Shown here in pieces: positions 6,761 to 64,000 of a stretch of 64,000 nt of DNA (the stretch's first letter is position 1; each line of letters opens with the position of its first letter). The position numbers and the translations under genes were made by a program. The notes beneath the pieces are model-generated. The model did no database searches, had not been told where the DNA came from, and saw only the letters and a list, made by a program, of their open reading frames with translations. Source of the DNA: a virus (taxonomy: Duplodnaviria; Heunggongvirae; Uroviricota; Caudoviricetes); the IMG/VR virus record IMGVR_UViG_3300021387_000074; one strand, written 5' to 3'.

Positions 6761-6985
6761 TTAATTGATTGTAGCAAGAAGTTCTTTGAGTTTCAAAACT
6801 TCTTCTTTTGTAAGAGTCAAACCTTTCTGCATTTTCTTTGAACCATCTTCTTCGGTAGTCCAGTTTCTTAAATCATACTTTGGCTCCGCGCCATTATATG
6901 AAATGATATTTAATTCTTTCGAGTATTTGCCACTCGCAGAAATTGTCCCAAGTTTTTCTTTGATTTCAAATGAGAATTCTGCCAT
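6761..6985 (-). CDS. hypothetical protein (possible YdbC/PC4-like small ssDNA-binding fold)
   Basis: 74-aa ORF with pattern 'ISYNGAEPKYDLRNW...KGLTLTKEE'. Weak resemblance only. Confidence 0.35.
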   Translation of the reverse strand: MAEFSFEIKEKLGTISASGKYSKELNIISYNGAEPKYDLRNWTTEEDGSKKMQKGLTLTKEEVLKLKELLATIN

Positions 6986-9402: not shown

Positions 9403-9984
9403 CTATTCTTTTTTTGTCAACGGGAATCTTTTCTGCCACCAAGCAGATTTCATATTAAACAAGCCACTTTCTTCTAGTGTTTCTTTGTAGGCGTCTTTTA
9501 CTTCTTTCATTCCGAGTTCCCATTTGAAAGAGTTATTACACAGATAGTTAATCAATTCACCGCGCCAATCAGAATGAATGTTCTGAGATGCGCCAGTTAA
9601 GAACTCTGTTATTTTTTCTTTTTCGACACCTTTTACTACAATGTTTAATAGCTTCTTGTTAAGAAGTTCTAACTCTGGGAAATTGCCAGTGTTGCCAAGA
9701 ACATGGATTAATTCGTGCATAATATAATCCATTGCCTTGTCTTTTGAAACAGTTGCAAACATTGGTCTGTTAATATAAATCTTAGTGCCTTGTGTATAAG
9801 CCATAACGTTGCTTTTCTGCTTAAAATCTCTAAGCACTAAAGTTACATTAAAAAATCTATTTATTTTCTTTAAAAACATTGGTGAAAAAACTTGTTCCAT
9901 ATATCTATGAAATAAGTTGTCGAGTGCCTTTTCGCCACTATTTATTCTTAAATCTTCTGTAAAAACTGCATCTTCAAAGTTCAT
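9403..9984 (-). CDS. putative zinc metallopeptidase (HExxH)
   Basis: 'DYIMHELIHVLGNTG' HExxH motif. Otherwise unassigned. Confidence 0.4.
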   Translation of the reverse strand: MNFEDAVFTEDLRINSGEKALDNLFHRYMEQVFSPMFLKKINRFFNVTLVLRDFKQKSNVMAYTQGTKIYINRPMFATVSKDKAMDYIMHELIHVLGNTGNFPELELLNKKLLNIVVKGVEKEKITEFLTGASQNIHSDWRGELINYLCNNSFKWELGMKEVKDAYKETLEESGLFNMKSAWWQKRFPLTKKE

Positions 9985-22027: not shown

Positions 22028-22267
22028 AAAAGAAGGGCGTTTAATACGCATTCTCTAATAATGCAGTTGCCCTTCGCCCAAGTATTTATAGTGCGTCGTG
22101 GCGATACACTTGAAAAGATTTTATGTTGTTCTTTTCATCAACATCAAAATTATAACACGAAGTCATAATTTTGTAAAGGGATGGGCTACCACCCAACCTC
22201 CACCACCTAGTTTCATTAATGTTTCTGAGAAGGAAGCTTCAAAAAACTAGGAAACAAATACCTTAGT

Positions 22268-22340
22268 GGAGCATATCGGAATTGAACCGATGTCCAAACA
22301 ACTTCTTATATTAAACACGTCTTTACAAGCTTAAGTCATT
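22268..22340 (-). ncRNA. tRNA 3'-half-like element (T-arm ATCGG-TTCAATT-CCGAT plus acceptor strand), no 5' partner found
   Basis: The + strand carries 'ggagcatatcggaattgaaccgatgtcc'. The 5' acceptor complement is absent from the following 300 nt. Confidence 0.25.
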
Positions 22341-22866
22341 TGCTTTTCGGTAAGTGCAAATAACAAAACTAATAGATTTTAATTTTCGTTGGTAAGCACT
22401 GAATCTCCAAAAGTTCAAACCAACTATCAGATGGTGACACTTAGACCGAAATATCTGAGTCATTCGCTAAGTGCTTACGCAACCATTGCGTAAGAATCTT
22501 CGAAATCTTCGTCGATTATTTTTTTGCTATATTAAGGTTAGCAACCTTTGCTTGATGTTTAATTCTTCCGTTGCTGTCGAAACCAAGAATGCCCCATAAG
22601 AATCATTGTCCATTTACCACTTGCGGACTACAAGGTAGCCAAGCCAGGCTCAACTTAAAGCTCTAATCTTAGGCTTTTGTTTTCGCTTGATGATTTATTA
22701 TACTACTTTTTTAACTTTTTGTCAAGGGTTGTTTTAGCGGTTTGGTAATCATCATAAAACTCATACTGTCCACCGTAGTGATAACAAACCAAATACTTTG
22801 TAGGAGTTCTCCACAATTCCCAAACACCCTTTTGTAATAAAAATTGCCATCCCATAAGATTAACTC

Positions 22867-45507: not shown

Positions 45508-45535
45508 TGTGAAGCCCCCAAAGATAAAATTTTAT

Positions 45536-45607
45536 TTCGCTTATTGGACTCGAACCAATGACCTGCGGATTAATCGTCCGCCGCTCTGCCACCTGAGCTA
45601 AAGCGAT
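45536..45607 (-). tRNA. tRNA-like gene with A1·A72 mismatch and anticodon loop CGAUUAA
   Basis: D-arm GCTC-AGGTGGCA-GAGC. Anticodon stem GCGGA/TCCGC. T-arm ATTGG-TTCGAGT-CCAAT. The anticodon-loop register is unusual (G at position 33). Confidence 0.45.
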
Positions 45608-48150: not shown

Positions 48151-48363
48151 CCCGTTCCGCTCTTAAAGAGCATTACTAGGGGAATAAATAGTAGGGTTAA
48201 TTAGTCTTGCAGATTATCGGCTTCTGAATTGCCAACCCCATAAAGCTCACGGACTTTAACCGCACCCACGCTATCGTCATCCGCTATTGTCGGCTGGTGT
48301 CTGGTAAATCCAGGTCATACCTATCGTTGCAGACTATTGTCGCCACCGATTAAGATGTAATAC

Positions 48364-48434
48364 AAGGCTATGGAGGCTCGAACTCCAACTCCCACTCTTA
48401 CGAGTAGGGTGCTAACCATTAACACTATAGCCTT
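48364..48434 (-). tRNA. tRNA-like gene with atypical anticodon arm
   Basis: Acceptor AAGGCTA/TAGCCTT, D-arm GTGT-TAATGGTTA-GCAC, T-arm TGGAG-TTCGAGC-CTCCA. The anticodon region forms a 7-bp stem with a GTAA tetraloop. Confidence 0.4.
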
Positions 48435-48840
48435 TACCAAAGATAAGCTCTCTCGAACTCTCTCCAAAAAATTCTATTGCACATAAGCAAAAATGTCAAC
48501 AGAAGAAATAGGGAACACAACTCATTTCCCACATTCACGAACTAACCCCGTGGTCGGGCTTATCGCTTATTGCCCCTTACTTGCCTAACTCAGAGTTTAA
48601 TACCTCACTCCTCCTAGTTGTCGCTTGGCTTTATTCTCTGAACGGTTTTCACGAGCCGAGTTGTTAAGTTTTAGGCGAACAATATACCCACTAAAATGTT
48701 AGTCCGAAGACTAACATGAAGTTGCGTCCAATATCTTTATAAGAATAGGAATTGTATATGCCTTTGCTTATTTATAATCAATTCAGTTGTGTCCAGCCAA
48801 CTGAATTACCATACCAAATTAGGCGAGTTGTATGCCTGGC

Positions 48841-48913
48841 TCGCGAGGAAGGACTTGAACCTTCAACCTTCGGGTTTGTCGCCCGACGCTCTAGCCAATT
48901 GAGCTACTCTCGA
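48841..48913 (-). tRNA. tRNA with anticodon loop CGACAAA (anticodon ACA?), 3' CCA encoded
   Basis: D-arm AGCTC-AATTGGCTA-GAGC. Anticodon stem TCGGG/CCCGA. T-arm GAAGG-TTCAAGT-CCTTC. GCCA follows the acceptor. Confidence 0.5.
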
Positions 48914-57976: not shown

Positions 57977-58558
57977 CTACAAATTGTCTGTAAGATTCGA
58001 AAAATCAATATAACTGTTATCAATGTTGCCATTGATTAAATCGCCCCAAACTTCCCATTTAGGTGCCTGAATTTCCTGGATTTTGCCAAATTGTTCTTCT
58101 GATAATTCCTGAAAACTTTCAATGTTAATATCATCGCCGAGCAGTTCTTTAGCAATAAGACGCTCAAAAGCATAGCCCTCGATACGATAGCAATACTCTC
58201 GAACTTCTTCTTTGCCCATAAAAGTAACTGTTTCTTTTTGTGGCATAAGTCCCAGCTGAAGAAGACTCATTGTGAAAGTTTTTGCTGCATCAATATATTC
58301 TCTTCTTAAATGTGCACGAGCTTCACAAGCCTCTTGTGAGAAATCATTTTCAGGTGGCATTGTAGGATTATCAAAATAAAAGATGTTGTTTAATTTTTTT
58401 TCATATTTGAGATCTTCGAATGTGCATCCATACCAGCATGGCTTGTTTTCATTATTTACGCCAAGAAAGCAAGGATACTGCCATTTTTCCCAAAAGTCAG
58501 CATTATCTGCTGCACTTATATTTTTTTCATATCTAACGACTGTTTTGAAAAACTTCAT
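57977..58558 (-). CDS. hypothetical protein
   Basis: 193-aa ORF. Confidence 0.45.
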   Translation of the reverse strand: MKFFKTVVRYEKNISAADNADFWEKWQYPCFLGVNNENKPCWYGCTFEDLKYEKKLNNIFYFDNPTMPPENDFSQEACEARAHLRREYIDAAKTFTMSLLQLGLMPQKETVTFMGKEEVREYCYRIEGYAFERLIAKELLGDDINIESFQELSEEQFGKIQEIQAPKWEVWGDLINGNIDNSYIDFSNLTDNL

Positions 58559-58825
58559 ATTTGCCCCCGCAAAAAAATAGTTTTATTTTCGTTTTGAAAA
58601 ATTATAACATTAAAACTTTTTTTTGTAAATCACAGCGGTTTGAATCGAAAAAGCTGCAGCAAAAAATCAACGCCTTGTCCCGAAAATTATACAGTTTTGG
58701 GGACAAAATACGTTTTTGTAAAGTTCAAGAGCTGCTGCAGAATTGACGTAATGTTTCCACCCACGCACCTTGACAAGAAGTGCGAGTAATGTTTCCAACC
58801 CCGCAAAACAAAAAAAAGAGCAGGT

Positions 58826-58862
58826 GCCCAGGCTTATCGCCTTACTAACCTGCTCTTTTTGC
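58826..58862. terminator. bidirectional intrinsic terminator hairpin
   Basis: 'aaaaaaaagagcaggtgcccaggcttatcgccttactaacctgctctttttgcc' is a GC stem flanked by A-run and T-run. Confidence 0.5.
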
Positions 58863-59395
58863 CAAGTGCCCGAACTTCTCAGTCCTACTAACTTGTCAGC
58901 GGTAACAGCCCCCGTCGGGGCGAATACCGCTTAAATTAAAATGTCAAAACTCTGCTACATTGTCACAGAGGGGAGTTTTGTGGTTTGTCTAATACCCTAG
59001 AGTCGTGCCAATCTTATCCCATATAGCACACTACGTTATACCTTTTTGCGTCCTCCGCTCATCTGAATCCCTAGCGGGATGGTCTATAACGCCCGACCAA
59101 CTCATATCTAGCAGGCTGACAAAATCCTGCCACTTTTGAGGTTTTTGTTTTTTAGAGCAACCGTTCAACTATGATAAACCTATCCGCCTAATAAGTCCTC
59201 AAGGAGTGTTTTGATTATTTGATAACTCAACAACATAAAACACCCAAACTAAAAACAGTGACCGAAGTCAATCCCACGCTATACCTCGCCTCGCGATGCG
59301 AAAAATAGCGTGTAAAGTGAATATGCATCTTCACTTTTAGGAGCCTACAGATTACCGAAAACAGCCCCTGCGTTTTGACTTCAAAAAAATCGGTT

Positions 59396-60430
59396 TTACG
59401 CAATATCAAATCCGCCAAGTCCTACAAACTTAGTAATAGCGGAAAATTCATGTGCAATTCTTTTTGAGCGTTCAGCATTCAAAGAATCTTCCAATAAGGT
59501 CAAGCCGTGCTTGAGGCTCAACAAAGTCATACAGCCGCTCAAATCAGTTTGAATCAAAATATTTCTAACCTTTTCGAGATTAGAATTATTTCCATTTGCA
59601 AAAGACAAAATGATTTTGTCAGTTTCCCCATTTTCAACCGCCTCTTTTGCAATTACACGCATTTTGTATTTAAGGTCGTCAGTTGATTTACTCTTATCAG
59701 CAAGAGTTTTCAATTCAAAAACAAGTGAACCATTCACTGCTTTTATAGTGTCATCGTTAGGGTTATAACCGCCCGAAGAGCCATATAGTTCATCATTCAC
59801 GTTTCCCATACGTGCCATCAGCCCCTTCTCACTACTTGACAGTAATGCCCTATAACACTGCTTGTGCATTTCGCTTATCTGCTTATAAAGTTCCTGATAC
59901 TTTACCAAAAGAACATTATAGTGCTCATCATCATAAGCATCTAAACAATCATCTAACAATTCAGAAGCACCCTGTGATAAAATGGCGGGCAGTATTCTTT
60001 TGACTTCAATATCATCAGAATCGACGAGGGCTGAGAAGTAGTCCAGCATCTTTTTGATTGTTTCCTTCAGTGAAGTTCCAGCGGACATTATATCATAGAA
60101 TGATTTATTTCCCACAATTATAGATTTTGTAAGAATCAATTCTAAAACAGAGTCCACGATTTTATAACCTTCAATGGTCGGCTCTTCATAATCGAACGCC
60201 TTCCCGAAGGTCTTAATAAGGTCTTCAAAATCATCATAGGTTTTGAAGTTATTGAAAAGCATCATCTGCTCTTCTATTAAAGCAAGAGAGTTATCTTGAA
60301 GTCGAAAACCATTTTGAAACAAGAAATAGAGCTGGTCTCCGTACTTCTTAATAGCATCTTGCGGATAAAGTTTATTACAACGCTGAACAGTATAAGGGAA
60401 TACCACATAATTTTTATAGTTTATATTCAT
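59396..60430 (-). CDS. hypothetical protein (344 aa)
   Basis: Long ORF. Confidence 0.5.
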   Translation of the reverse strand: MNINYKNYVVFPYTVQRCNKLYPQDAIKKYGDQLYFLFQNGFRLQDNSLALIEEQMMLFNNFKTYDDFEDLIKTFGKAFDYEEPTIEGYKIVDSVLELILTKSIIVGNKSFYDIMSAGTSLKETIKKMLDYFSALVDSDDIEVKRILPAILSQGASELLDDCLDAYDDEHYNVLLVKYQELYKQISEMHKQCYRALLSSSEKGLMARMGNVNDELYGSSGGYNPNDDTIKAVNGSLVFELKTLADKSKSTDDLKYKMRVIAKEAVENGETDKIILSFANGNNSNLEKVRNILIQTDLSGCMTLLSLKHGLTLLEDSLNAERSKRIAHEFSAITKFVGLGGFDIA

Positions 60431-61162: not shown

Positions 61163-61339
61163 AGTATTTTTACTCCCGACCGTTTCCTAATACGGTCTCG
61201 TTATCAAATTGTGTTTTTGGTATGATACACTAACATATTGCTTTAATTATGCACTACGGTCATTAACAATGCCGATTTACATGCCCACGTTTTGCCCTAG
61301 TTTGTTTTCTCTCAAACTATGACTGCCGAACTTGCTATA

Positions 61340-61368
61340 ATTTTAACACAAGTGATATTTTTTGTCAA
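61340..61368 (-). promoter_or_regulatory. sigma70-type promoter
   Basis: The minus strand reads TTGACA, then 17 nt, then TAAAAT. Confidence 0.5.
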
Positions 61369-61568
61369 TCATCACTCATACCAACAGTATACAACGCTTT
61401 TGCTTTTGAATATGCACTAGCGTGCCTTCGTTCTTTATCACAAACAATAGAACAATCTGAAGCCTTAAACTTCTTATTCCCATTTTTTGTGCTGACCATA
61501 ACAAAATCCATATCATCGGCAAAATCAATAAAAGTGCCGACAACCTTACCATTGCTTACGACTTCCAC
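61365..61568 (-). CDS. small hypothetical protein
   Basis: 67-aa ORF. Confidence 0.35.
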   Translation of the reverse strand: MEVVSNGKVVGTFIDFADDMDFVMVSTKNGNKKFKASDCSIVCDKERRHASAYSKAKALYTVGMSDD

Positions 61569-61600
61569 AATTTTACCTCCAACGCAGATTTTTGTAAATA

Positions 61601-61670
61601 GGAGTAGGTCGGATTTGAACCGACAAAATATACTATTGAAAGTATCGTTCTACCGTTGAACTACTACTCC
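61601..61670 (-). tRNA. isolated tRNA-like gene with 6-nt anticodon loop (UUCAAU)
   Basis: Acceptor GGAGTAG/CTACTCC, D-arm GTTC-AACGGTA-GAAC and T-arm GTCGG-TTCAAAT-CCGAC are all well paired. The anticodon loop is 1 nt short. Confidence 0.45.
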
Positions 61671-61701
61671 ATTATAACACCAAGCGAAAATCAATTATGC
61701 A

Positions 61702-62058
61702 CTAACTGACTAACGGAGTGTCCATCATAGAAGGCTCAATGTGATAACTACCGTTACCCGAATTGACGCCCCATTTACGATTGACCAATTTAAGAAGGTC
61801 GTCGGAGATGTTGCGGGATAAATACTCCCCTTCAGAGTCACCATCTGCAAACCAAATCTTAGTACACTTATCGGTTATCTGATAACCAAGCCGAGCCTCA
61901 CCCAAGCGAGCAAAATCTTCCCCAGCAATTACTTTTACTGCCTTTTCGATTTCCTGCTTGTGAGGCTTGTCGAACTTATGATGGAATGAAACATTCCAAC
62001 AACGATTAAAACCAACATCATCCAAGTGTTCGTTACTGTAGATTTTAATGAATGCCAT
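61702..62058 (-). CDS. hypothetical protein
   Basis: 118 aa. AGGGGG RBS 9 nt upstream. TAGTGCATAAT motif upstream. Confidence 0.45.
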   Translation of the reverse strand: MAFIKIYSNEHLDDVGFNRCWNVSFHHKFDKPHKQEIEKAVKVIAGEDFARLGEARLGYQITDKCTKIWFADGDSEGEYLSRNISDDLLKLVNRKWGVNSGNGSYHIEPSMMDTPLVS

Positions 62059-62112
62059 ATTGCTAAGCCCCCTATGCTTAATATTATATGCGGAATTAAA
62101 ATTGATTATGCA

Positions 62113-62352
62113 CTAAGATAAATCCAAGTGCTCAGCGGAAATATAGACCTGTCTGCCATTACGCTCCAGGCTACCAACAATGCGGACATTAAGTGGTTTT
62201 TTCTTAATGATTGAATCTGCCATTTTTTGAGATTTTACAACAACAGCCATTTTTTGTCCATTATTGTCCACAATGAATGCCAAAGGCATTGACCCTTTTT
62301 TAGAAGTGAAGTGTGCAAACTTTCCTTCAAAGATTACTGAATTAAGTGCCAT
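62113..62352 (-). CDS. small hypothetical protein (possible OB-fold)
   Basis: 79-aa ORF. The OB-fold suggestion is only a weak impression. Confidence 0.4.
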   Translation of the reverse strand: MALNSVIFEGKFAHFTSKKGSMPLAFIVDNNGQKMAVVVKSQKMADSIIKKKPLNVRIVGSLERNGRQVYISAEHLDLS

Positions 62353-62353
62353 T

Positions 62354-62605
62354 TTACACCTTCCATATTTTTTTACCGTTTACAATGGTCGGCTTACCAT
62401 ATTTTGATTCAAGGACTTCGCTCTGAGTTCTGAGCTGACGAGGAGGCAGTTTTGTCATATTCTGCTGGTCGTCAATTCCCTTTCCCGTTTTGGCTTCGAG
62501 AACATCTCGGAGTCTTAAATTGCCATACTTAGCCTTCCAAGCCTGCGGATTTTTTGCGAGGTTGATAAGACCATCCAACTCATTAGCATTTATTGTGTTT
62601 CTCAT
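62354..62605 (-). CDS. small hypothetical protein
   Basis: 83 aa. Preceded by the 37-bp promoter/RBS cassette. Confidence 0.4.
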   Translation of the reverse strand: MRNTINANELDGLINLAKNPQAWKAKYGNLRLRDVLEAKTGKGIDDQQNMTKLPPRQLRTQSEVLESKYGKPTIVNGKKIWKV

Positions 62606-62641
62606 ATTGTGTCCCCCTTATGAGATATAGTATACCACAAA
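62605..62641 (-). repeat. 37-bp promoter/RBS cassette, copy 1
   Basis: 'attgtgtcccccttatgagatatagtataccacaaaa' is identical at 63279-63315. The minus strand reads TGGTATACT...AAGGGGGACACAAT-ATG. Confidence 0.7.
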
Positions 62642-62659
62642 ACCAAAAACGATTATGCA

Positions 62660-62851
62660 CTAAGCCCGTATTATTTGGTCATAGCGAATGCCGACCACTT
62701 TGTCCCCTTCGGGAACATACGCAGATTTTTTTGTTACCTTAGTAACTCTGCGTGTTTTGATTCCATTGTGATTATAAACAATACGGTCACCAACTTTTAC
62801 AAGTTTAGTGAGGTCAAAATCTCTTAGAGAATTAAATGCAATTCCAACCAT
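62660..62851 (-). CDS. small hypothetical protein
   Basis: 63 aa. Confidence 0.35.
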   Translation of the reverse strand: MVGIAFNSLRDFDLTKLVKVGDRIVYNHNGIKTRRVTKVTKKSAYVPEGDKVVGIRYDQIIRA

Positions 62852-63031
62852 AAAGTGCCTCCTATAATACGCACATGAGAATTATTAAAAATGGGAACAT
62901 TGATCCACCAATAAAGGTGTAACCCCATTCCGTCAAGTTTTGCTTTTCTTTTTCAGTCCGAGCGGTCTTGCTAACACCTAAGTATGCAAGACCGATGAAC
63001 ATACAAGCGACCATTAATGCAAGAAGGACTA

Positions 63032-63280
63032 CTAACATTTAGCATCCCCCTTCACATCATTCAGAATAACCCAAGTGCCACCACTAGAGAGGTAACGCTT
63101 ACGTTTTGGATTTGTTGCAGTGCCCCACTTCACGTAGAAGGCTCCCTTTTCAGACTGATGCAGAATGCGTTTCTGAGTGCTAAGTCCAACGGTTACCTTC
63201 CTTCCTTCGTGAAGAGCCTCGAAAATAGGGCAATCAAGATTTTCTGCCCTGACCAAGTGCAATACTGATTTTCCCATAAT
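63032..63280 (-). CDS. small hypothetical protein (start at MGKSV)
   Basis: AAGGGGGA RBS 8 nt before the ATG at 63278-63280. The track ORF extends further 5' but lacks an RBS. Confidence 0.4.
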   Translation of the reverse strand: MMGKSVLHLVRAENLDCPIFEALHEGRKVTVGLSTQKRILHQSEKGAFYVKWGTATNPKRKRYLSSGGTWVILNDVKGDAKC

Positions 63281-63315
63281 TGTGTCCCCCTTATGAGATA
63301 TAGTATACCACAAAA
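63279..63315 (-). repeat. 37-bp promoter/RBS cassette, copy 2
   Basis: Identical to 62605-62641. Confidence 0.7.
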
Positions 63316-63478
63316 AGTAGTGCAATTATGCACTACTTCCAACCAAGAGCCTGCGGATAGTCTACAATCCTATCTGCAGCACCATTTATTGCCGATTCTA
63401 AATCATACGTGCCACTTTTGATGGCACTTTTGATTTTACGGACTTTTTCGGATTTTGGAGTGCGGAGTTTTGGCTTTT

Positions 63479-63787
63479 TCATATCTGCATAACTCCCAAG
63501 TGAACAGCCCCAGCCTCGCGGACTGCTAGCCCTTTTGCGTCGCTGACTTTTGCTCGATAAACAAGTGCCTGCAGTCCTTCTGTTTTGTTACTTGTTGCCA
63601 TCAACTGTAAGGTCTTTTCCATAGAATAGCGTTTATCTGATTTTACAGCGTTATGGAATGCCCTTCTAGTTGTGTCCACTTCAATACGCACTAAGCGGTC
63701 TTTTTTAGCCCAAATGTTAGCACCAACTCTGATAGAGCCTCTACAGTCCTGAAGCCCTATGTCCTTTTCAAATTGTGTAAGTTCCAT
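63479..63787 (-). CDS. hypothetical protein
   Basis: 102-aa ORF. Confidence 0.4.
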   Translation of the reverse strand: MELTQFEKDIGLQDCRGSIRVGANIWAKKDRLVRIEVDTTRRAFHNAVKSDKRYSMEKTLQLMATSNKTEGLQALVYRAKVSDAKGLAVREAGAVHLGVMQI

Positions 63788-63850
63788 ATTAAGCCCCCTA
63801 TGCTTAAAATGTTTAAGTTTTATATATAAGTGATTAAATCACTTGATATA

Positions 63851-64000
63851 CTTAATTATACAACTACTTAAAAAGTAATTATGCACTAAGTGATTACTAG
63901 GTGCGAAAAAACTAATTAAATAATTTATGACTTAATTATACAACTACTTAAAAAGTAATTATGCACTAAGTGATTACTAGGTGCGAAAAAACTAATTAAA
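63851..64000. repeat. tandem direct repeat, 2 x 70 bp separated by 10 bp
   Basis: 'cttaattatacaactacttaaaaagtaattatgcactaagtgattactaggtgcgaaaaaactaattaaa' occurs at 63851-63920 and 63931-64000. Confidence 0.8.

Follow-up and report, generated by a model that had tools for sequence, protein, structure and literature searches.

The window analyzed here is a 64,000-nt stretch of the genome of an uncultured phage of ~233 kb (Caudoviricetes; IMG/VR record IMGVR_UViG_3300021387_000074). The region around it was read in the metagenomic contig ena:ERZ28612940 scaffold_35 (233,198 bp), where it is referred to as L001, and the plus strand of L001 corresponds to the minus strand of the window. The entire window is coded on the minus strand and contains 30 tRNA genes and one transfer-messenger RNA (tmRNA) gene. 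Host promoters are of the TTGACA/TATAAT type and the ribosome binding sites (RBSs) are strong AGGAGG or AGGGGG sequences. At the high-coordinate end lies a module of ~5.4 kb, whose genes encode small proteins of unknown function. The subject of this report is the word TTAGTGCATAAT, which recurs in this module ahead of small operons and is probably the upstream element of a two-part promoter. A first-pass annotation of the window had pointed to the word and suggested that the genes behind it belong to the middle or late class. That assignment is not supported, as the module encodes proteins of an early or host-takeover kind and includes no structural gene.

Promoter-like sites of the module

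TTAGTGCATAAT or a near copy occurs eight times on the minus (gene) strand, always between 61.2 and 64.0 kb and nowhere else in the 64 kb. Five copies are exact (61694-61705, 62105-62116, 62652-62663, 63878-63889 and 63958-63969), two read GTAGTGCATAAT (63325-63336 and 61246-61257), and a degenerate copy, CTAGTGCATATT, is found at 61409-61420. The six copies listed in the first-pass annotation are all real; those at 61246 and 61409 had been overlooked. In L001, the 11-mer TAGTGCATAAT is observed 10 times with at most one mismatch, compared with an expectation of 0.55.

A TATAAT, TATACT or TATCAT hexamer begins 16-18 nt past the last base of the motif at all eight window sites, which places the motif at approximately -41 to -30 when the start is set ~7 nt past the hexamer. 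A loose two-part scan of the 64 kb (GT[GT]CA, 25-27 nt, and a TAnnnT hexamer at least 5/6 identical to TATAAT) returned precisely these eight sites and no others. In the source contig, each of the nine readable copies has a hexamer matching TATAAT in at least five of six positions 25-27 nt from the core G, against a background of 2% (binomial P = 5e-16); the array copies are duplicates and the relatives share ancestry, so that independence is overstated by this and the later binomial values. From motif to hexamer, the spacers keep their length and vary in sequence. CATAAT occupies the usual -35 position, and a consensus scan found no TTGACA-like hexamer 16-18 nt from these -10 hexamers. Reading the CATAAT within the motif as a -10 hexamer with its own upstream -35 was rejected as a general explanation because TTCGCA-18-CATAAT is present only in the array units and at 61275. 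The -10 hexamers lie ~20-30 nt ahead of strong AGGGGG/AGGAGG RBSs and start codons, and in four cases the TAG of the motif doubles as the stop codon of the preceding gene. A TGn extended -10 is present at 63307, 62634 and 61676 (three of seven distinct sites) and absent at the array units, 62088, 61391 and 61227.

Perfect TTGACA-N16-18-TATAAT promoters number nine in the window, all on the gene strand and all below 55.6 kb. The earlier statement that the TTGACA cassette is gone from ~61.6 kb needs one qualification: an ordinary sigma-70/sigmaA-type site, TTGACA-17-TAAAAT, lies inside the module upstream of the leader of a 211-aa gene (61340..61368, minus strand).

The module opens with a tandem array (63850..64000, minus strand) of 1.9 identical 80-bp units, cut by the window end. 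Each unit comprises TTAGTGCATAAT (63958-63969; 63878-63889), 17 nt, and TATAAT (63935-63940; 63855-63860). What had been described as a 70-bp terminal repeat has a true period of 80 nt with 100% identity over 1.9 copies, the second copy ending after 71 nt at the window edge. Repeat units do continue past that edge, a point that the first-pass annotation had raised: in L001 the motif recurs at 9565, 9643, 9720 and 9800, after which the scaffold has a gap, and an ungapped contig (L004) has four copies at 77-80-nt spacing. The array holds at least 4-5 units in the source contig, and five ungapped units in the sister genome L269. Directly downstream lies the first module gene (102 aa; 63479..63787, minus strand), which is kept in most of the related lineages fetched and whose product has a confident alpha+beta model with no known fold match.

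The remaining sites, all on the minus strand, stand singly. The site at 63302..63336 comprises GTAGTGCATAAT (63325-63336), 17 nt, and TGG-TATACT (63302-63307), its TAG being the stop codon of a 49-aa gene; the motif here also forms the 5' arm of a hairpin, GTAGTGCA-taat-TGCACTAC, followed by TTTTT (-21.1 kcal/mol). The site at 62629..62663 has TTAGTGCATAAT, 17 nt, and TGG-TATACT, with the TAG ending a 63-aa gene, and that at 62083..62116 has TTAGTGCATAAT, 16 nt, and TATAAT, with the TAG ending a 79-aa gene. At 61671..61705, TTAGTGCATAAT, 17 nt, and TGT-TATAAT follow one another; the TAG is the stop codon of a 118-aa gene and the -10 hexamer adjoins the 5' end of a tRNA-like gene. The degenerate site (61386..61420; CTAGTGCATATT, 17 nt, TATACT) is located within the 3' end of a 67-aa open reading frame (ORF), and its orthologue in L269 carries GGGTGCACTAA. 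Doubtful is the site at 61222..61257 (GTAGTGCATAAT, 18 nt, TATCAT). Its motif copy at 61246 may lie outside the promoter class, since it sits inside the conserved structured leader of the 211-aa gene and the relatives do not have their own word there.

These positions define a series of predicted transcription units. The array would serve the 102-aa and 49-aa genes, a single site the 81-aa, 58-aa and 63-aa genes, the 62629..62663 site the 83-aa and 79-aa genes, the 62083..62116 site the 118-aa gene, and another single site the tRNA-like gene together with the 67-aa gene; three sites, one of them the ordinary TTGACA-17-TAAAAT, precede the 211-aa gene. The motif had been said to precede each short gene, which holds for small operons rather than for individual genes, several of which are second or third in their operon. 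Two leader families recur between non-adjacent genes. The 37-nt leader noted earlier as identical in two genes is indeed so (family D5; 62606..62642 = 63279..63315, minus strand) and spans the -10 hexamer and a AAGGGGGA RBS, while the second pair (D7; 62064-62084 and 63790-63810, minus strand) has TAAGCCCCCTATGCTTAA in common.

The same design with different words in related phages

DNA and protein searches of GenBank phage records gave no match, and no relative was recovered from IMG/VR by an exact 38-mer, by the neighbouring 344-aa protein or by a 19-mer that bounds the module (described below); 16 IMG/VR matches to the two-part pattern were isolated chance matches. Related contigs were reached through homologues of the 344-aa protein (41-97% identity) and of the 102-aa protein, and one lineage (L164) was added from a metagenome contig scan. 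The record names of the related contigs contain 'gut metagenome'. Scans of genome and metagenome contigs with a degenerate 19-mer (16 bases) returned largely chance matches, the true relatives among the matches listed being only L164 and L176.

Nine related lineages have the same design, in which a core lies at a fixed 26±1 nt from a -10 hexamer and copies are dense and on one strand of a 5-8-kb module. The module has this size in every relative whose contig reaches far enough, and the sites are confined to it. The word itself differs. TAGTGCATAAT was not found in any related contig outside the window's own strain; its place is taken by TAGGTGCACTT in L022/L023, L164, L267/L268 and L269-L271, by AGGTGCTGTTTTC in L024, by GGGTTCACY in L021, by AGGTACTT in L274, by AAGGTGCAGRA in L025/L026 and by GGTTACTT in L277. 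The G of the common GT(G/T/A)C core is separated from the -10 hexamer by 26 nt (25-27). Sites with a -10 hexamer at this distance amount to 9/9 in L001, 10/10 in L269, and 7/8, 11/11, 9/10, 8/9, 13/18 and 18/26 in other lineages; the hexamer background is 1-3%, and the binomial P ranges from 1e-12 to 1e-18 in the lineages tested. Motif copies in the relatives are almost exclusively on the gene strand, and a tandem array precedes the first gene in L021, L164, L267, L269 and L274 as well. The gene content of the module varies by lineage, with an HNH gene in L024 and L274, for example. The fixed -10 distance at every copy, the replacement of TTGACA and the retention of the two-block design in relatives support the earlier suggestion of a distinct promoter class.

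Among the relatives, the two most distant show an extreme density of the core word, which is also strand-specific. L025/L026 (3052-11536) has 31 copies of GGTGCAG within 8.5 kb and L274 (1-5400) has 26 copies of GGTACT within 5.3 kb, with 1-2 copies on the opposite strand. Many of these copies are inside coding sequence and are not followed by a good -10 hexamer; promoter function alone does not account for the copy density in these lineages.

A word switch between sister phages

The window phage has three sister genomes, L269 (ena:ERZ12302822 NODE_28), L270 and L271. DNA identity to L269 is 96.2-97.4% in the flanks of the module and 91.5-94.3% within it; 31 of 39 compared proteins are 93-100% identical, and the 344-aa protein is 97% identical. 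All orthologous promoter sites in L269 nevertheless carry TAGGTGCACTTC in place of TTAGTGCATAAT, with the -10 hexamer at offset 26 in 10 of 10. The adjacent spacers are partly retained, as in window cgtttttggttttgtgg, which corresponds to tgttgttggttttgtgg in L269. An exact replacement of ~12 nt at every site would be hard to explain by drift or by gene-conversion tracts. That orthologous sites switched their word in concert in a 96%-identical sister points to selection for a changed recognition specificity and strongly suggests a specificity factor that co-evolves with the sites.

Interpretation

We consider it fairly probable that TTAGTGCATAAT is the upstream element (~-41 to -30) of a factor-dependent two-part promoter confined to one small-gene module. 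The downstream half would be an ordinary sigmaA/sigma-70-type -10 hexamer (TATAAT/TATACT), and the motif would stand in for the TTGACA -35 hexamer. The module would then open with an array of at least 4-5 such promoters, followed by one promoter before each small operon. Presumably, the -10 hexamer is read by the host RNA polymerase holoenzyme and the upstream element by a co-evolving sequence-specific partner, either an activator or a substitute for sigma region 4, which is most likely phage-encoded. The first transcription would start from ordinary TTGACA-type promoters, which serve the remainder of the window and are also found immediately ahead of the module.

A more far-reaching version, which we regard as rather improbable though worth stating, is that the module is an island with a private promoter code. 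An unrecognised phage protein would redirect the host RNA polymerase to dozens of co-oriented promoters, one per 250-500 bp; the code would diversify fast among sister phages, in the manner of immunity specificities, and the inverted, co-varying 19-mers could mark a physical unit. If so, the private code would keep co-infecting relatives off each other's early program, and the island between the 19-mers might enter the cell ahead of all other DNA or be a long direct terminal repeat, its two ends being cut or nicked on opposite strands.

Several observations weigh against the factor-dependent promoter, among them the outcome of the search for its factor. The comparison with Pfam, PHROGs and NCBIfam took in the ten proteins of the module, 70 other ORFs of the window and 19 ORFs upstream of it. 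It returned no sigma factor, helix-turn-helix (HTH) protein or MotA/AsiA-like protein from the 64-kb window and the 9 kb upstream (~74 of 233 kb), and two modelled proteins gave no match to a DNA-binding fold. The earlier proposal that a phage sigma or transcription factor recognizes the motif is plausible: the concerted switch in the sister favors it, and no corresponding protein was found in the searched region.

One gene considered as a source of specificity encodes a 193-aa protein and lies just outside the right module boundary (57977..58558, minus strand; TTTACA-17-TATAAT promoter at 58629-58601). Of 39 genes compared with those of the sister, it alone is replaced (47.6% identity). The three TAGGTGCACTT lineages have alleles that are 59-68% identical to one another and 42-50% identical to that of the window. 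With 18 matches among 1.84 billion representatives, the family is tiny; the protein has no Pfam match, and its model (predicted local distance difference test score, pLDDT, 74) has no fold match. The allele of L277 is 88% identical to that of the window, yet L277 uses the other word GGTTACTT (its 343-aa protein is 59% identical to the window's), and the family was not found in the L021, L024 and L025 loci. The 193-aa gene was demoted to a weak lead for these two reasons and for the lack of a fold match.

The remaining difficulties concern the sites themselves. The start sites on which the promoter reading depends are predicted from sequence. The TGn at three of the seven distinct sites in the window means that a basal level of activity may not require the factor. 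In L025, only 6 of 31 copies have a -10 hexamer matching in at least five of six positions, many copies are intragenic and the -10 hexamers are of the TAGNNT type; the L025 word may have an additional or different role, given its many intragenic copies without a good -10 hexamer.

A second candidate, the 49-aa gene of the module (63333..63482, minus strand), encodes a protein with KVRKIKSAIKSGTYD, which is similar to the conserved helix at the C terminus of FlgM, an anti-sigma-28 factor (Pfam E = 3e-4, 21.3 bits vs a cut-off of 25). Pfam, NCBIfam and PDB all indicate FlgM, with every score below threshold. The protein may be a polymerase- or sigma-binding takeover protein. It was rejected as an essential part of the system because the gene is missing in L021, L024 and L267, which keep the promoter class.

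Alternative explanations

The best surviving alternative, which we nevertheless hold to be unlikely, is that the motif is a repressor operator laid over the -35 region of promoters that are self-sufficient through their -10 or extended -10 hexamers, so that a phage repressor shuts the module off. Host-takeover genes of other large phages undergo such a repressor shut-off. The motif overlaps the -35 region, a common operator location; TGn at three of the seven distinct sites would fit promoters of this kind, the concerted switch fits a repressor-operator pair equally well, and the many L025 copies with no -10 hexamer are what simple binding sites would look like. However, most sites have neither a -35 hexamer nor a proper TGn and would be expected to be weak on their own, and the rigid 26-nt register with the -10 hexamer (10/10 in L269) suits an element that contacts the polymerase better. 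The library scans of the window and the 9 kb upstream also found no repressor-like HTH protein.

It appears quite improbable that the word is part of a recombination cassette, comparable to the PeSL cassettes discussed below, which gene conversion homogenises within each genome in place of a change in factor specificity. The identical leaders of non-adjacent genes (D5, D7), the variable gene content of the module between lineages and the joining of hairpin, T-tract and promoter at some sites are all consistent with such a cassette. The comparison with L269 speaks against it: only the ~12-nt block is replaced and the spacers are partly kept, whereas conversion tracts would take the flanks along. 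The stem-loop is moreover absent at most sites, and a cassette is compatible with promoter function, making it an added property rather than an alternative.

Replication-origin iterons, an option that the first-pass annotation had left beside the promoter, fare slightly worse and are very unlikely. On this view, an initiator protein would recognize the 80-bp array, and the likeness of its hexamers to a -10 would be an accident of AT-rich sequence. The array is indeed tandem and AT-rich (GC 0.265 in L001 9-10 kb), its position is conserved in relatives and several assemblies break at it, but such breaks are expected at any tandem repeat. The two-part element also stands before single genes and operons over 2.7 kb at promoter-like distances from their RBSs, every copy is co-oriented with the genes, cumulative GC skew runs monotonically through the array with no switch there, and no replication initiator was recognised nearby.

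An RNA-level signal after stop codons, either an intrinsic terminator arm or an RNase processing site, has the least in its favor and can be set aside as highly improbable: the motif often begins on the upstream stop codon, T-rich sequence follows it, and a strong hairpin with a T-run is found at window 63325 and, in L022, L024, L021, L267 and L164, ahead of the 344-aa gene, but most copies have no hairpin that includes the motif, the GC-rich hairpin and U-run of an intrinsic terminator being present at one of the eight window copies (63325), and the fixed 26-nt distance to a TATAAT hexamer would be needless. The partner arm of the hairpin upstream of the 344-aa gene matches each lineage's own word, and the hairpin sites look like overlapping terminator-promoters.

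Comparison with known systems

Factor-dependent promoters in which the -35 hexamer is replaced are a classic way for large lytic phages to re-program the host RNA polymerase. To our knowledge, very few such systems have been described, all from a handful of model phages. The closest functional system is the T4 middle promoter, a class to which the present sites do not belong. The T4 middle promoter combines a sigma-70 -10 hexamer with a MotA box that replaces the -35 hexamer and is read by MotA on AsiA-remodelled sigma (PMC2988021). The MotA box has the sequence (a/t)(a/t)(a/t)TGCTTtA, is centered at -30 and is separated from the -10 hexamer by 12±1 bp (PMC2988021); about half of T4 middle promoters have TGn, and the class coexists with strong ordinary early promoters (PMC2988021; PMC6755090). 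The two systems are alike in a host-type -10 hexamer with a phage-specific -35 replacement at a rigid distance and in the ordinary strong promoters alongside. In contrast to the MotA box, the present element is (T)AGGTGCA-like, extends from about -41 to -30 and leaves 16-18 bp to the -10 hexamer. No MotA/AsiA-like protein accompanies it in the ~74 of 233 kb searched, the class is restricted to a single 5-kb module whereas that of T4 is distributed genome-wide, and the word differs between near-identical phages.

The PeSL elements of T4-like phages, cassettes of an early promoter and a stem-loop (PMC4122927; PMC2839356), resemble the present sites in being short conserved cassettes between small ORFs of a variable region, with identical leaders and, at some sites, a stem-loop next to the promoter. 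Here, however, a private word replaces the -35 hexamer, and the stem-loop is found at a minority of sites. Clusters of strong consensus host promoters at the early end of the genome are known from large lytic phages such as T7 (A1-A3) and from the host-takeover and pre-early regions in the terminal repeats of SPO1 and T5. As in those phages, several co-oriented promoters lie before and within a block of very small genes without known function, and each operon has its own promoter and a strong RBS. The difference is that the consensus host promoters are outside the module here, and the promoters of the module have no -35 hexamer.

What is unusual, for factor-dependent two-part phage promoters, is the restriction to one bounded module, the very high density, the conserved array and the lineage-specific words. 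Sequence comparison alone brought this promoter class into view in an uncultured clade of ~230-kb gut and rumen phages. The 96%-identical pair with a different word at every orthologous site amounts to a natural specificity swap and should provide a route to the factor; it also offers orthogonal promoter-factor pairs for Gram-positive hosts. The result can also guide the annotation of transcription units in this phage group.

Module boundaries and other features

Wherever both ends are present (L001, L269-L271, L021, L025/L026 and L267), the module is flanked by inverted copies of a conserved 19-mer, GTAATGTTTCCAACCCCGC. The right boundary in the window consists of two copies on the plus strand (58748-58766 and 58786-58804, spanning 58748..58804), which correspond to L001 15022 and 14984 on the minus strand. 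The left copies lie outside the window, upstream of the array, at L001 9512 and 9542 (plus strand). The arrangement in L269 follows the L001 pattern. The 19-mer is found at 6911 and 6981 (plus) and 12087 (minus) in L021, at 3727 (plus) and 11389 (minus) in L025, and at 9562 (plus) and 14845 (minus) in L267; the contigs of L022, L024, L164 and L274 break in or near the array, so that the downstream 19-mers alone are visible. Lineage-specific substitutions are common to left and right copies (TTTGCAAC in L267, TTAATG...ACACC in L025), and the 19-mer is far more conserved than the promoter word. It may be a boundary to which a protein binds, a site of recombination or, in a terminal repeat, a site for nicking or for the terminase.

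Immediately ahead of the left 19-mers come a terminator and a promoter of the TTGACA or TTTACA type. The right 19-mers are preceded by a terminator, and ordinary promoters resume beyond them. GC content is 0.39-0.42 in the module (L001 10001-15000) vs 0.31-0.36 in the 9 kb upstream (L001 1-9337). This step, together with the module being the most diverged part between the sister genomes, suggests that the module has its own recombination history. At the right end, ~560 nt past the 344-aa gene (58830-59396, minus strand) contain no convincing ORF, with the terminator just before the 19-mers; an 83-aa gene fills part of this space in L022. An RNA that has escaped annotation, or the remains of a gene, could lie in this stretch.

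The leader of the 211-aa gene (61163-61345, minus strand) is conserved across lineages that are only 45-68% identical in the protein. GATAACG is invariant in it, and its hairpins show compensatory substitutions, with double changes at 15 of the 21 pairs predicted; it is a candidate cis-regulatory RNA. An Rfam scan of 56-64 kb gave no match except a tRNA, and none for this leader. The two ordinary TTGACA-type promoters from which transcription would enter the module or run inside it are both followed by CTAGGGCAAAA(C)GTGGGCAT (L001 9465-9483; window ~61283-61302, minus strand), which may be a common regulatory site.

The tRNA-like gene of the module (61600..61670, minus strand; Rfam tRNA, 59.5 bits) has a 6-nt anticodon loop, TTCAAT, for which ARAGORN gives a 2-nt 'anticodon', ca. 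The same odd loop is retained in L269, L022 and L267, and the gene is for this reason probably functional, presumably as something other than an ordinary decoder.

Elsewhere in the window (1-56000, minus strand), auxiliary genes encode NAPRTase, NAD synthase, a NUDIX protein, a GGDEF diguanylate cyclase, a Clp protease, Cpn10 (with Cpn60 just beyond the window), radical SAM proteins, a T4-type RNA ligase and a PC4-like protein. The tRNA genes include one with a 4-base anticodon (gtaa; 48363-48434), a tRNA-Asn(att) (45535-45607) and a tRNA-Cys(aca) (48837-48913), all on the minus strand, the latter two with A in the wobble position. The tmRNA gene (22266-22595, minus strand) encodes the tag DEDFEDSYAMVA.

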